Origin: Octopus vulgaris
Taxonomy: Eukaryota
Direction of reading: 5' to 3'
Length of the DNA stretch: 64,000 nt
Assembly: GCA_951406725.2 (NCBI GenBank)
Contig: OX597815.1
Location: forward strand, 107,756,001 to 107,820,000
A model generated the notes under the pieces. It was not told the origin of the DNA, ran no database searches, and saw only the letters and a list, made by a program, of their open reading frames with translations. Position 1 is the stretch's first letter. Each line of letters opens with the position of its first letter. Below are positions 11,730 to 40,424 of this stretch, piece by piece. The position numbers and the translations under genes are program-made.

Positions 11730-11905
11730 TTAACGCGAGGACGTGGAACAAATATAGTGTTATTGGATGCTCAGGAAAGGAAAGAAAGAGGATTTAATGT
11801 TTCGAGCGGAGCTCTTCATCAGAAACATAGGAAAAGGAAAGATCTAAGGAAGGGAAAAGACAGGAAAAAAATTGCCAACGATACAGATGCAGTCACATAT
11901 TGAAT
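11730..11905 (-). mobile_element. Penelope-like pLTR remnant with minimal hammerhead core, (TA)n on both sides
   Basis: Minus strand ttt-CTGATGA-a-GAGC-tcc-GCTC-GAAA-cat-TA-aat (11792-11826). Confidence 0.65.
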
Positions 11906-11929
11906 ATATATATATATCATCATTATCCT

Positions 11930-12390
11930 CATCATCATCATCTTCATTGATTAACATCCGTTTTCCATGCTAGCATGTGTTGGATGATTTGACTAAGGTC
12001 TGGTGAGCCAGTAGCTGCACCAGGCTCCAATCTGATCTGGCAATGTTTCTACAGCTGGGTGCCCTTCCTAATGCTAAGCACTCTGAAAGTGTAGTGGGTG
12101 CTTTTTACATGCCACTGGCGTGGGAGCCAGTCAGGCAGGCCTGGCATCGATCACATTTGGATAGTGCTTTTTACGTACCACCGGCACGGGAGCCAGTCAT
12201 GGGGAACTGGCTATAGCTACGATATTGGTGTTACTTGACTCAACAAGTCTTCTCAAGCGTATCATATCATCCAACGCATCAGGGGTATTCTTAACTGAGC
12301 CTGACATACATGGCTGTGATCTCACTTTTGTTGCTGGGTCTTCTCAATCATAACACATCTCCAAAGGTCTCAGTCTCCCGTCATTGCCTC
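11930..12390 (-). mobile_element. RTE-type 3' region with (GAT)n tail
   Basis: catcatc..ttaacatccgttttccatgctagcatg...gcccttcctaatgc...gtgctttttac repeats. Confidence 0.85.
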
Positions 12391-12583
12391 TCTCTCTATA
12401 CATACGCACACACATATATATATATGCATACACACACATAATTAATATAGATAACCGTGTGCAATGTTTTACCAGAAAGGAAAACTATAATTTTCACTAA
12501 ATATCCTTAGGATGTTAGAACACCTACATTGCTAGAAATAAGAGTTGAAAAGCTCTAATGCTGTAATTAAAACACATAATTAA

Positions 12584-12634
12584 CCCTACTGATGAGGCTA
12601 CAGAATTAACTGAAACTGACCGATCAGTACAGGG
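12584..12634 (+). ncRNA. Type I hammerhead ribozyme motif, copy 1
   Basis: CCCTA-CTGATGA-GGCTA cagaat TAACT-GAAA-CTGA ccga TCAG-TA|CAGGG; intact core, predicted cleavage after GUA at 12629; one mismatch each in stems I and II. Confidence 0.75.
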
Positions 12635-12932
12635 AATTCTTGACTGGTGCTTCAAATGATTACAGTCCCTGTCAGTACATATGTATACAATTATATGCTT
12701 TAACCACAGCATTAGAACTTTCTAGCACTTATTTCTAGCAATGCAGGTGTTCTAATACCCTAGTCATATTTAGTGACAATTATAATAGTTTCCCTTTTTG
12801 GTAAAACATTGCACATCACTATCAATATTAATTTTTTTGTAGACACAGCGATTTGTTAAATCATCCAGATTTTTATGGTGAATACTTATGTACTGACAAA
12901 GAAGTTAGTCAAGAATCAGCAGAGTCGAATGG

Positions 12933-12986
12933 TTCCTACTGATGGGGCTATGGAATTAGTCAAAACTCACTAATCAGTATAGGGAA
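12933..12986 (+). ncRNA. Type I hammerhead ribozyme motif, copy 2 (core-mutated)
   Basis: TTCCTA-CTGATGG-GGCTA tggaat TAGTC-AAAA-CTCA ctaa TCAG-TA|TAGGGAA; stems I and II intact, two core substitutions. Confidence 0.6.
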
Positions 12987-13134
12987 TTCTTGACTGGTGC
13001 TTTCGGACAATTACAGTCCTTGTCAGTACATATGTCTACGATTATGTGCTTTAACTACTGCATTAGAGCTTTTTAGCTCTTATTTCTAGCAATATAGGTG
13101 TTCTAAAACCCTAGTTATATTTATATATATATAT

Positions 13135-13290
13135 CATCATCATCATCATCATCGTTTAACTTCCGTTTTCCATGCTAGCATGGGTTGGATGGTTCGACCG
13201 GGGTCTGGGAAGCCAGGAGGCTGCACCAGGCCCCAGTCTGACCTAGCAGTGTTTCTACTGCTGGATGCCCTTCCAATTACCAACCACTCT
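13135..13290 (-). mobile_element. RTE-type 3' tail repeat
   Basis: (CAT)n-cgtttaacttccgttttccatgctagcatgggttgga...ctggatgcccttcc. Confidence 0.85.
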
Positions 13291-32653: not shown

Positions 32654-33325
32654 CATTGTGTACAGTGCTCAGGTGCACTACAACTCATCTAAAGTGTATG
32701 TATAATCAGGTGTAGTTTCGGAGGATTTCGGAAAGCATGAGGGCCTTATAGGATGCAGTGTCATGGCAGTCAACAACTGACGCAGGCAGTTTGTTCCATG
32801 CTTCAGCAACTCTGAGCGTGAAAAAATGTTTCCGAAAGTCATGGGAGCTGTGTTGTTTTCTGACTTTGTAGGCATGTCCACGTGTGTTGGACACATGGAG
32901 ATCAAAAAGGTGTTCAGTGTTGTTGTTGGTGAGGTGGTTGATAACTTTGTGGGTGTTTACCAAGTCCATCGCCAGACGCCGGAGCTTCAGTGAATCCATG
33001 CCCAGGGAAACAAGGCACTCAGAGTATGGTAGGTGTCTGATGGAGGGTATGCATTTGGTTGCACGCCTCTGAACAGATTCCAGGAGGTCAATGTTCTGAG
33101 CAAGATAGGGGTTCCAAACTGATGATGCGAATTCCAAGTGTGGTCGTACCTTAGCTGTATACAGTTTTAAATAGATGGCTGGAGAGCGGCTAACAAAAGT
33201 CTTGCTGAGTGATGCCAAGACACCCTTGGCCTTCTTGACAATTTTAGAGATATGCTTTGTCCAACGCAAATCACTGCTGACAGTGATGCCTAGGTCACGC
33301 TCGCAAGAGGATTTCTTGATATCAG
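32571..33325 (-). mobile_element. 5'-truncated CR1-group LINE (RT C-terminus, 3' UTR and probable (ATT)n tail)
   Basis: ORF 32706-33269, extendable upstream: ERDLGITVSSDLRWTKHI...VRPHLEFASSVWNPY...LESVQRRATK...TRGH...FFTLRVAEAWNKLP. Confidence 0.92.
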
Positions 33326-33436
33326 TGATATAAGTGATGTAATTATTCAGCTCTGCATTTGTTTTAATAAATTACAGAAACAAGGGTGTGTATAAGTTTT
33401 TACTTATCCTCCCATATATATATATATATATGTATG

Positions 33437-34285: not shown

Positions 34286-34537
34286 ATTAAGGAACTTTGG
34301 AAATCTGTTTGCAACCTAAATCTGCCTTTAATGAAATTATCTCCAATACTTCATGAGTATAGCCTCACCCACTAAGATGTTTGGAGAACTCATATGTATT
34401 TTAGCTGATGAGTACGGGACACTTTTATCTGCTGTAATTTTTGCAACTTGTAATAAAGCCTGTCTTTGTATGAAACAATTGTACTAAAATCTAATCCATT
34501 CTTGTTGCTTCTTTCTCGTATATACATATACATATAT

Positions 34538-35705
34538 GGAGTGTGGTTGCATGACATCCTGAAAGATAGGAGTCAGGCAGTAGTGGTTAATGGAGCCACC
34601 TCTATGAACACACAAATAGTGAGTGGTGTTCCACAGGGCACTGTCTTGGGACCACTGCTTTTTATAGTGGCCCTCTCAGATATGCCCTCAAATGGCCGGA
34701 TAGCCACTCTGGCCAGCTATGCAGACAATACGAAAGTCTCACAGAAAATACAGGACCCCAGCAATGTTGCACACCTGCAGCAGGAGTTGGGCTCAATCTA
34801 CAGATGGGCTGAGGATAATAATATGCAGTTTAATGCTGAAAAATTCCAGGCTCTGCACTACCAGCATCCAAAACTGAATATTAAACTTACAGGATACACC
34901 GGTCCACAGCGAATTTCAATCCCAGAGCCTAAGTCTGTGAGGGACCTGGGTATCGACATGAGTGATGATACCTCTTTCCAAGTGCACATTACCAGGATGG
35001 CAACAAAGTGCAGACGACTGGCTGGGTGGATCCTAAGAACATTCAGAACCAGAGATAAGGAAACCATGATGGTCCTCTGGCGGACATTTGTCCTCAGTCG
35101 CCTGGATTACTGCTCACAGCTATGGTCACCCACCAGTGTAAAATTAACAGCGGACCTTGAAGCAATCCAGAGAAGATTCACAAAGAAGATCGTCTCTTTG
35201 CAACAGCTCAGCTACTGGGAAAGGTTGAAACAGCTAAGACTCTACTCCCTGGAGAGAAGACGGGAGAGGTATGCAGTGATATATGTCTGGAAGATCCTGG
35301 AAGGAATTGTGCCAAATTTTGGCATTGTAAGCTACACCAATGCTAGAACGGGACGACACTGCATAGTGCCAAAGATCCCAGCAATGCCATCACGCTTCAG
35401 GACCAGCTTCTGCAACAGCCTGGGTTTCAAGGGCCCACAGCTTTTTAATATTCTCCCAAAGAGTCTGAGGAACTTGCACAAAGTAGATGTAGCAGTTTTT
35501 AAATCAAAGCTGGACATCTTCCTGTCAAGAGTCCCAGATGAACCTACCTCACGGCAAGAGGTGCAAATGAGAATAGCTGTATCAAACTCCATTCTTCACC
35601 AAGTGCCACATATTAGACGAGGTTCGTCGTAATAACAGTGTAGCACAAAACAGTGGTGCATCAGCATGGCCGCAGCTCTGAGCTGAAACTAGAAAAAAAA
35701 AAAAA
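34538..35705 (+). mobile_element. 5'-truncated CR1-group LINE with open RT C-terminal half and poly(A) tail
   Basis: Uninterrupted frame to 35632 with SGVPQGTVLGPLLF, YADN (catalytic YADD mutated), RDLGI, SRLDYCSQLWSP, SLERRRERY; A-run at 35693-35705. Confidence 0.95.
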
Positions 35706-38554: not shown

Positions 38555-38719
38555 ATAATCCTACTTATGTAGCACCAAATTCTAGCTGTGGCACCACCTC
38601 CTAATCCAATACCATTACAGATTGCACTTCAGGTTCTCCCCCACTAACAATGAACCGATGGATCTCAACCTCACTAGCAGTAAATTCCAACCACAGAGCA
38701 GGTAGGAAAACTTGAAATT

Positions 38720-39111
38720 ATTGAGCTTTTCAACTATACCATATTGGAAGCGCCTGTCTAAGTAAAAATATTGTCTACAAGTGCCTTGTTATAGCACCAT
38801 GCTACCACCAAGCAAGGGTATATATTGGCGGCACTGTACATTTCAAGCTCTGCTACCATGCACACATGAACTCTTTCTCCAATCCAAATTCTGAATTATC
38901 AACCTCCTTAGCAACTTATATACACAATTTTAAATCTCAAAATATTATATGCACCCTATCCTGGTCCATAGTAAGTGAGGCTCATCCACACAAGGCAAAC
39001 ATTGGCAAGTGTAAGTTATATCTAAAAGAATCATTAACCATTCTTTGCCTTCATAACTCTTCATTACTTCATAGATTCTCTGATGTAATTTATTCTTGTA
39101 AACACAAGTAA
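38720..39111 (+). pseudogene. Penelope GIY-YIG endonuclease domain
   Basis: GSACLSKNIVYKCLVIAPCYHQARVYIGGTVHFKLCYHAHMNSFSNP...STSLATYIHNFK...WSIVSEA...CKLYLKESLTIL...CKHK. Confidence 0.85.
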
Positions 39112-39257
39112 ATACTACCTCCTCTTATTCTTTCTCATACCCACATTTCCAAATTCTTCTAATCCACTACTTCCTACTTTCCTCTTAGCCTACCCACCCT
39201 CCCTACCTTCAAAAAGTACTTAACACTGCCCCACTATTTTGAAAACTAACCAATCTA

Positions 39258-39486
39258 TACATTATTTACATTTGACGGATATTTGTCCTCATTTTATTTA
39301 TTGTTAACACAACGTTTCAGCTGATATGCCCTCCAGCCTTCATCAGGTATCTTGGGGAAATTTCGAACCTGGATTCTCATTCCTAAGGTATTTTTTGATG
39401 TTGTTATTATTATTCAGGTCACTGCCTGGAATAGAACTTGGAATCTTGGGGTTAGCAGCCCACTCTCTTAACCACTATGCCATATC
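39258..39486 (-). mobile_element. tRNA-headed SINE with a hammerhead-like core in its 3' part
   Basis: Minus strand: A box TGGCATAGTGG, B box GTTCTATTCC, then gatac-CTGATGA-a-GGCTG gagggcatat CAGCT-GAAA-cg-TT-gtgtt (39306-39351). Confidence 0.75.
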
Positions 39487-39990
39487 TCTACCCCTCCCTA
39501 TTCACATACCTATATTCAATTTCATACACCTCTCCAAACCAAAATACCTGCCTCCAATACCAACCCAATTCCTTTGCCCCACTAACAACTACTATTTTGA
39601 CCACCTAGTCACCCCCACTCTCTCCACCTCTATCTTCTCTCATATCTCTCTACATACCTTACTAATCTCCCTCAGCCACTCAATTCCCTCAAATAATTGC
39701 CATTCCCATTGTCACTATCTCAACCTTTAACTCTATAGCCTTCATACAAACAAAGAGGTTACCATTCACATACTACCTAAACCACCCTTCCCTCTTCACC
39801 CACACTTCGACCTCAACTACTATGACCCTCTACTAGTCTCATTAAAAATCCCTAACACTGAAATTTATTTTCTCCTTCCATTACTCTCTATCTAAATATC
39901 TCCCAGCTTCTCCTTCTAATACACTTAGTTCTCCACAAAATCATTCCATATTTAACCACCTTTTTGTCAACAACTCAAGTGTAAAACTTC

Positions 39991-40085
39991 TTCCCTGAAG
40001 ATGGAGACTGGTATTATCCAATGATGAAGTCAATTTACAATCGTTATTTTGGACCACCAAGCCTCCAGAAACAGCTGTTAGACTC
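39991..40085 (+). ncRNA. Hammerhead-like motif in the Penelope pLTR
   Basis: CTGAAGA-TGGAG...TCCAA...TTGGA...CTCCA-GAAA-CAGCTG-TT; palindromic stem III; stem I poorly paired. Confidence 0.55.
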
Positions 40086-40424
40086 ATAAAACTTTTATTC
40101 AACCCCTTTAATTCCTGATATCATTTCTATTCTGTGTAAGTCGGACTTTTTTATATGTAAACATATGTACATGTTTTTGTATTTGATGTATTTAATATTT
40201 TTTGTATATCGACTTACTAAACTTGCTTATCCTTAGATTTACTTCTCTACCTCCTCAAGTTTAAACCTTTTGAATGCTATGAAGTGTATTCTATATGGGG
40301 AATATCTGTCTCTTATATACTATATATACTATATATGTATGTGTGTGTGCATGGATGTGTGTGTGCGTGCATGTGTGTGTGTGTGTCTGTATATATATAT
40401 ATATGTATATATGTATATATACAT

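Follow-up and report, generated by a model that had tools for sequence, protein, structure and literature searches.

The retrozyme class has already been described, including from a mollusc (mussel), in the available portions of PMC7229834 and of the bioRxiv preprint 10.64898/2026.07.22.740005. Penelope-like elements (PLEs) are presented, in the accessible text of PMC7229834 and PMC7761336, as likely candidates for moving animal retrozymes. According to the part of 10.1101/2021.04.23.441226 that is available, PLE insertions show an inverted, 5'-truncated copy and a bias towards microsatellites. A PLE cuts both strands at AT-rich DNA, and its reverse transcriptase (RT) initiates internally at a stem-loop downstream of the hammerhead ribozyme (HHR), about 90 nt past the HHR cut, with unprocessed RNA as the main substrate and with cleavage dispensable in vitro (PMC11167929). 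A family with many dateable insertion ends permits a sequence test of which enzyme moves retrozymes and of whether a circle is the template. Octopus vulgaris possesses such a family, the value of which lies in its insertion ends rather than in the locus described here. Judged from its sequence features, that locus is on balance best read as a decayed insertion of 1.5 units plus an inverted arm, derived from an old non-LTR retrozyme that would have been copied by the RT and endonuclease of a PLE, probably from an RNA circle. No published description of the family or of cephalopod retrozymes was found in the literature, although Repbase, Dfam or supplementary files could hold one.

The window, meaning the whole 64,000-nt stretch that was analysed (G000:C2:107756001-107820000), belongs to an assembly of 2.8 Gb in 227 contigs that is rich in microsatellites. 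The element at 12440-13122 consists of two arms joined head to head with a gap of 2-3 bases. The direct arm, on the forward strand, comprises a full unit of 350 nt (12584-12933; 88.9% identity to the consensus of a family whose unit is about 349 nt) and a partial unit (12934-13122; 89.9%) that covers q1-189 and ends at a recurrent internal 3' site. An inverted copy of ~140 bp had been noted upstream, and it corresponds to a 5'-truncated arm on the reverse strand (12440-12581; q106-247; 91.5% identity) that terminates at the preferred 3' site of the family. Unit coordinates run from q1, the first C of stem I (window position 12584), to q347, with the predicted cut at q46|47; they follow a 347-nt consensus without a 2-nt insertion found in 22 of 23 informative segments, so that positions above q260 read 2 low. 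The outer ends of both arms enter (TA)n/(TG)n: a (TA)n/(CA)n microsatellite at 12397-12439, the likely target site, adjoins the 3' end of the inverted arm, and (TA)n at 13121-13133 adjoins that of the direct arm. Regarding a target-site duplication, (TA)n is present on both flanks, and a 12-nt AT repeat is the sole sequence that they share. Two copies of a very abundant repeat headed by (CAT)n flank the locus (11929-12380 and 13134-13290), and its contig depth is extremely high in all four runs. Two other organisms, represented by runs X3 and X4, yield contigs 94-95% identical to 12788-13089, which suggests an insertion older than the split of these organisms.

The initial annotation reported two type I HHR motifs at an offset of 350, and both the direct repeat and a structural search confirm them. 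With starts 350 nt apart, 12585-12652 and 12935-13002 are 84% identical, the repeat runs on past the hammerheads at an offset of 351 with 89% identity, and a strict three-stem descriptor has one match in the window, while 150 triplet shuffles average 0.0 matches per 64 kb. The limits of the first motif (HHR1, 12584-12634, forward strand) stand as originally given, whereas those of the second (HHR2, also forward) are corrected from 12933-12986 to 12934-12984. In HHR1, the 5' arm of stem I (12584-12588) is followed by the core CUGAUGA (12589-12595), stem II (12596-12600 with 12607-12611), GAAA (12612-12615), stem III (12616-12619 with 12624-12627) and GUA, after which cleavage is predicted (12629|12630). 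The mutated core of the second copy was recognized correctly: HHR2 reads CUGAUGG, has AAAA instead of GAAA, has one pair of stem III broken, and is predicted to be dead. The first copy, however, is not sound either. HHR1 keeps CUGAUGA, GAAA, GUA and a perfect stem III, but stem II contains one C-A mismatch and one G-U pair, and the stem I pair beside the predicted cut is A-C.

A self-cleaved 350-nt RNA or circle is most improbable as a present product of the locus at 12440-13122, contrary to what had been proposed. Two HHR sites do exist, the core of HHR1 is intact, and the nominal cut-to-cut monomer (12630-12979, forward strand; 350 nt; GC 34%), the two ends of which pair as a long rod, folds with a z-score of -2.6 as a linear molecule and -2.5 as a circle. 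Against these features, HHR2 is without two core nucleotides and one stem III pair, and HHR1, besides the A-C next to its cut, has lost its upstream pairing arm because the insertion begins at q1; its active fold is predicted to lie 14 kcal/mol above the local minimum free energy (MFE). The locus is thus predicted to be an inert relic from which release of the monomer is impossible.

The unit recurs throughout the genome. A DNA search gave 74 matches among the best 40 of 1292 candidates, the size of the pool at first look, and DNA and pattern searches plus one fetch gave 195 loci, which reduce to 126 distinct places and 193 segments in a sample biased to long, well-preserved copies. Segments longer than 150 nt have a mean identity of 84.7% to the consensus (n=135). 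The tandem period is 347-350 nt, the longest copy has 1.7 units, and two HHR sites occur at 6 of the 126 places. The core is kept in 49 of 114 fully covered HHR sites, core plus stems in 20, and two intact HHRs at none of the 126 places, the window locus included. The consensus HHR is itself intact (core CUGANGA, GAAA, NUH; stems I-III; open at stem I). With a GC content of 38% and a longest stop-free frame of 60 aa in the consensus dimer, the family has as little coding capacity as was first supposed, and the description of the locus as a decayed member of a dispersed, non-coding HHR family with Penelope-type marks is borne out by 126 places at about 85% identity to the consensus. The family is old and looks like a dead fossil. 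A young subfamily was considered and rejected: only four sites lie within one mismatch of a 49-nt HHR stretch, four exact matches to a 26-nt stretch were found, and the best segment reaches 93% identity to the consensus. In run X1, which we guess to be RNA, a 183-nt contig with a depth of about 154 matches q5-133, and cover in run X2 is similar. Its differences fit the genomic copy L149, whose only HHR is broken in its core, and the contig is therefore no evidence for a circle.

Rfam Hammerhead_1 (RF00163), suggested as a check, gave no match at the locus or in five of the best-preserved family copies, so the HHR assignment rests on motif, stems and family conservation. Four of those five copies have sub-threshold matches to Hammerhead_3 (21-27 bits; cut-off 48.5); a type III reading of these was discarded, as the 4 nt from that GUC to the core leave no room for stem I. 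Genome-wide, 6 of 73 scored RF00163 matches exceed the cut-off (L143-L148), all of them in other families. L144, L145 and L148 have a long-stem-II form in common, and L144 is an inverted pair. As regards a conserved core and covarying stems, the consensus core is intact, and compensatory changes separate two subfamilies, A and B (55 and 32 loci, with duplicates partly retained), but covariation within subfamily A does not exceed that in shuffles. Of the 13 positions at which the subfamilies differ, six are unpaired, four form two compensatory pairs (stem II U-A/A-U; rod C-G/U-A), one is one-sided and two are pair-breaking. The lack of any excess over shuffles among 28 mostly subfamily-A HHRs is expected from neutral decay. 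In an alignment of 21 hand-picked HHRs, the three ribozyme stems are paired in 92-97% of cells; in this 21-row set the overall covariation score alone beats shuffles (10 of 500), at a level that relatedness alone can give.

Folded as a 349-nt circle, the consensus has a predicted energy of -106.9 kcal/mol, compared with -72.0+-4.8 kcal/mol in 100 shuffles, none of which is as low (z -7.2). It is predicted to be 62% paired, with a long rod (q47-103/q295-347) that prolongs stem I, and these predictions suggest that the ancestral unit was a structured RNA paired end to end. Two helices beyond the ribozyme had been proposed from the locus, of which tatgtactgaca/tgtcagtacata is real and family-wide, whereas agtcaagaat/attcttgact is specific to the locus copy; the consensus counterpart of the agtcaagaat stretch pairs with the nearer q339-343 instead. 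Within the HHR, the 3' strand of stem III has alternative partners, either its own 5' strand or ACUGAU of the core, the latter giving an inactive fold that is favoured by a predicted 3.2 kcal/mol. These alternative folds may act as an on/off switch.

The ends of the copies are informative about insertion. Head-to-head pairs are present at 44 of the 126 places and tail-to-tail pairs at none. A microsatellite lies within 30 nt of 129 of 182 3' ends, compared with 38 of 94 free 5' ends (Fisher p 1e-6) and a background of 20% of windows. A predicted hairpin at q236-262 accounts for 83 of the 182 3' ends, so that the preferred internal 3' end is about 200 nt beyond the cut site; none falls at q41-51, and minor recurrent 3' ends are found at q111, q189 and q201. 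The shorter inverted arms, mostly not the arm selected by the query, seldom end outside q51-262 (3/40; p 8e-6). The 5' starts are scattered round the whole unit, and copy ends are permuted and variable, in contrast to fixed LTRs. L149 has the same layout as the window locus, its inverted arm ending at q249 and its direct arm at q189 in (TA)n. Later deletions between TA-like sites and flanking DNA may instead account for some of the internal 3' ends. A preference of 3' ends for unpaired regions was not upheld (p 0.012 for all ends but 0.56 for distinct positions) and is confounded with AT content. Overall, the insertion marks are of PLE type, matching those reported in PMC11167929 and in the available part of 10.1101/2021.04.23.441226.

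When a GIY-YIG-like remnant in the window (38725-39108) was used as a query, at least 150 PLE-like matches were scored, with open frames of up to 806 aa. These partner proteins are taken to be PLE proteins on the basis of motifs; Pfam returned no family for any of the four that were submitted. The remnant belongs to a 5'-truncated PLE-like element on the forward strand (38560-40330), with a GIY-YIG-type frame at 38725-39108 and a 3' UTR of about 1.2 kb in which an HHR-like motif with a long stem II lies near 39995-40080. An abundant repeat bearing its own HHR-like motif (39295-39346, reverse strand) interrupts this element. Near-intact PLE-like elements are present at L095 (G000:C5:50455000-50460500) and L096-L101, as closely similar and apparently young copies. 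The frames of L095-L101 reach 806 aa, and their pseudo-LTR (pLTR) motif differs from the unit; their domain order, presumably RT then GIY-YIG, is likewise judged from motifs.

As to whether copies of the unit adjoin a Penelope ORF, 49 of the 50 PLE loci examined lack any resemblance to it, and the exception is one chimera, L091/L115. There, a piece of subfamily B (q~336-57) that ends in (TG)n stands head to head with a GIY-YIG-type PLE fragment, which is 5'-truncated and on the opposite strand, the joint lying within a couple of bases. Such an arrangement would be expected if a single PLE enzyme had twin-primed two different RNAs, although this is a single instance among the 50 PLE loci. The chimera partner in L091 and the remnant at 38560-40330 are of the same PLE family. 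PLE fragments are also near, although unjoined to, four other copies (L042, L134, L166 and L202).

These searches bear on the alternative that the unit is the pLTR of a coding Penelope element absent among the matches scored. Its insertion marks are all PLE-type, and the 126 places and 50 PLE loci were examined among thousands of candidates; because the best 40 candidates were scored per search, a coding parent of low copy number, or a young subfamily, could escape. Against this reading, the 94 free 5' ends have no unit-specific flank in common, only unrelated repeats, nor does any of them have a same-orientation RT/GIY-YIG ORF contiguous with the unit. Protein matches occur in 2 of the 94 5' flanks, of which one is that of L115, the chimera on the opposite strand. 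In 34 contiguous segments the q250|251 junction is constant, with the preceding unit rather than an ORF beyond it, and the ATG inside the consensus core meets a stop after 5 codons. Together with the 49 PLE loci that are dissimilar to the unit, this makes a pLTR origin of that kind improbable. The family is not an autonomous PLE, and no coding parent was found among the matches scored.

Which RNA served as the template is a separate matter, on which the lengths of the copies (22 of the 193 segments, internally split, being excluded from the length analysis) and their 5' stops bear. The cut site is crossed by 127 of the 193 segments, and two cut sites by six. An efficient HHR combined with read-through of the cut site would need a re-ligated circle, as modelled in the available text of PMC7229834 and PMC7761336; but crossing is no proof of a circle, since the PLE RT of PMC11167929 uses uncleaved RNA. 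It is possible, although less likely, that the family is a gutted, non-autonomous PLE derivative with an HHR inherited from a pLTR, copied without any circle from uncleaved tandem read-through RNA. The internal initiation, preference for unprocessed RNA and dispensable cleavage reported in PMC11167929 are all compatible with that origin, as is the preferred 3' end of the family some 200 nt past the cut. More than one unit is present in 46 segments, yet the longest are 583-587 nt, none reaches two units, and the termination rate increases with segment length. The inactive HHR fold, being the predicted MFE, would also favour uncleaved RNA.

Other features argue against copying from uncleaved RNA. 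Stem III of the HHR is complete (4 bp plus A-U, with a tetraloop) and stem I is extended, so that the ribozyme resembles the self-sufficient type of invertebrate retrozymes rather than the minimal or palindromic PLE type, as these are described in the available portions of PMC4209133 and PMC7761336. In 14 PLE 3' UTRs, the HHR-like motif, where one can be seen, is of another kind than that of the unit and has a long stem II. The six segments that span two cut sites and the structure of the entire 349 nt, with its ends paired, point in the same direction. At L166 1474-1806 (G000:C1:69353720-69353933), a symmetric head-to-head insertion has both arms beginning exactly at q47, the predicted cleavage site, suggesting that cleavage happened. 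Among 76 segments chosen without regard to upstream sequence, 5' stops at q45-56 account for 11 of 73 at risk, about 2-fold over background but not significantly so (p 0.05, or 0.09 with the L166 arms counted once). This excess and the L166 arms together are an indirect hint of self-cleavage. Copies of exactly one unit show no significant excess (9 of 86, compared with 5.8 expected; p 0.09) and were not counted as evidence for a circle.

If the locus derives from a retrozyme copied from a circle, as we favour, its history may have begun with a master copy with two intact HHRs that was transcribed and cut at both GUA sites. The monomer would then have been ligated into a circle and protected by the inactive fold, with its predicted advantage of 3.2 kcal/mol. 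A (TA)n/(TG)n target would have been cut on both strands by a PLE endonuclease, and each of the two ends would have served as primer for reverse transcription that began inside the RNA, in most cases at the hairpin near q236-262. The two resulting 5'-truncated cDNAs, one of them running more than one turn, would have been joined head to head, and the family would afterwards have died and decayed. Tentatively, the insertion ends may further be read as fossil traces of reverse transcription by Penelope enzymes on a circle that was made by the ribozyme and protected by an on/off fold; such a record would comprise permuted copies of more than one unit through the cut site, twin-primed arms, rare run-off exactly at that site and a chimera of PLE and retrozyme. 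If true, the life cycle proposed for retrozymes and PLEs would have direct evidence in genomic sequence, the chimera would name the partner lineage, and the life cycle would become testable in a purified-PLE assay.

The window contains several further elements. A second, unrelated head-to-head inverted pair lies between (TA)n tracts at 1815-2405, and each of its arms has a complete-looking type I hammerhead with an AUC triplet and a long stem II (1945-1996 on the reverse strand; from 2225 on the forward strand). This pair is likely to represent another PLE-type HHR family. About 600 bases upstream of the locus, a short element ending in (TA)n has a minimal hammerhead-like motif at 11791-11822 on the reverse strand. 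Long open frames at 34457-35632 (forward strand, 391 aa) and 32706-33371 (reverse strand, 221 aa) look to us like C-terminal remnants of LINE reverse transcriptases.

Compared with known systems, the family has the sequence-level features of a metazoan non-LTR retrozyme, namely a type I HHR, a tandem HHR unit within 150-450 bp, a GC content below 50%, and a non-coding, self-paired sequence. The retrozymes of PMC7229834 (Cervera & de la Pena 2020), such as the ~350-390-bp repeat of mussel, are described in the available part of that paper as having likewise a type I HHR with a stable helix III and a low-GC, non-coding, self-paired unit of about 350 nt, and as co-existing with PLEs. Their arrays reach 62-mers, whereas the octopus copies are dispersed, have at most 1.7 units and show head-to-head inversions; moreover, the octopus family looks dead, two intact HHRs being present at none of its places. 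With EN+ PLEs and pLTR HHRs, as far as these are covered in the accessible portions of 10.1101/2021.04.23.441226, PMC11167929 and PMC4209133, the family shares partial tandems, an inverted 5'-truncated arm, microsatellite or AT-rich targets and internal RT initiation downstream of the HHR. It differs from EN+ PLEs in that it lacks an RT/GIY-YIG ORF, keeps to a fixed period of 349 nt, carries a complete HHR instead of a minimal one, and has 3' ends spread over about 200 nt in place of a 30-40-nt tail. The retrozymes of 10.64898/2026.07.22.740005 (Li, Clavereau & Pollet) have the same dispersal as monomers and dimers, and a PLE origin and mobilisation are proposed for them; in the sense in which the available text of that preprint uses 'active', none of the 126 octopus places is so, the window locus included. 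That text includes no mollusc in its sampling and builds its case on co-occurrence and pLTR homology, whereas the octopus family, for which no pLTR homologue was found, is linked to PLEs by its insertion geometry and one chimera.
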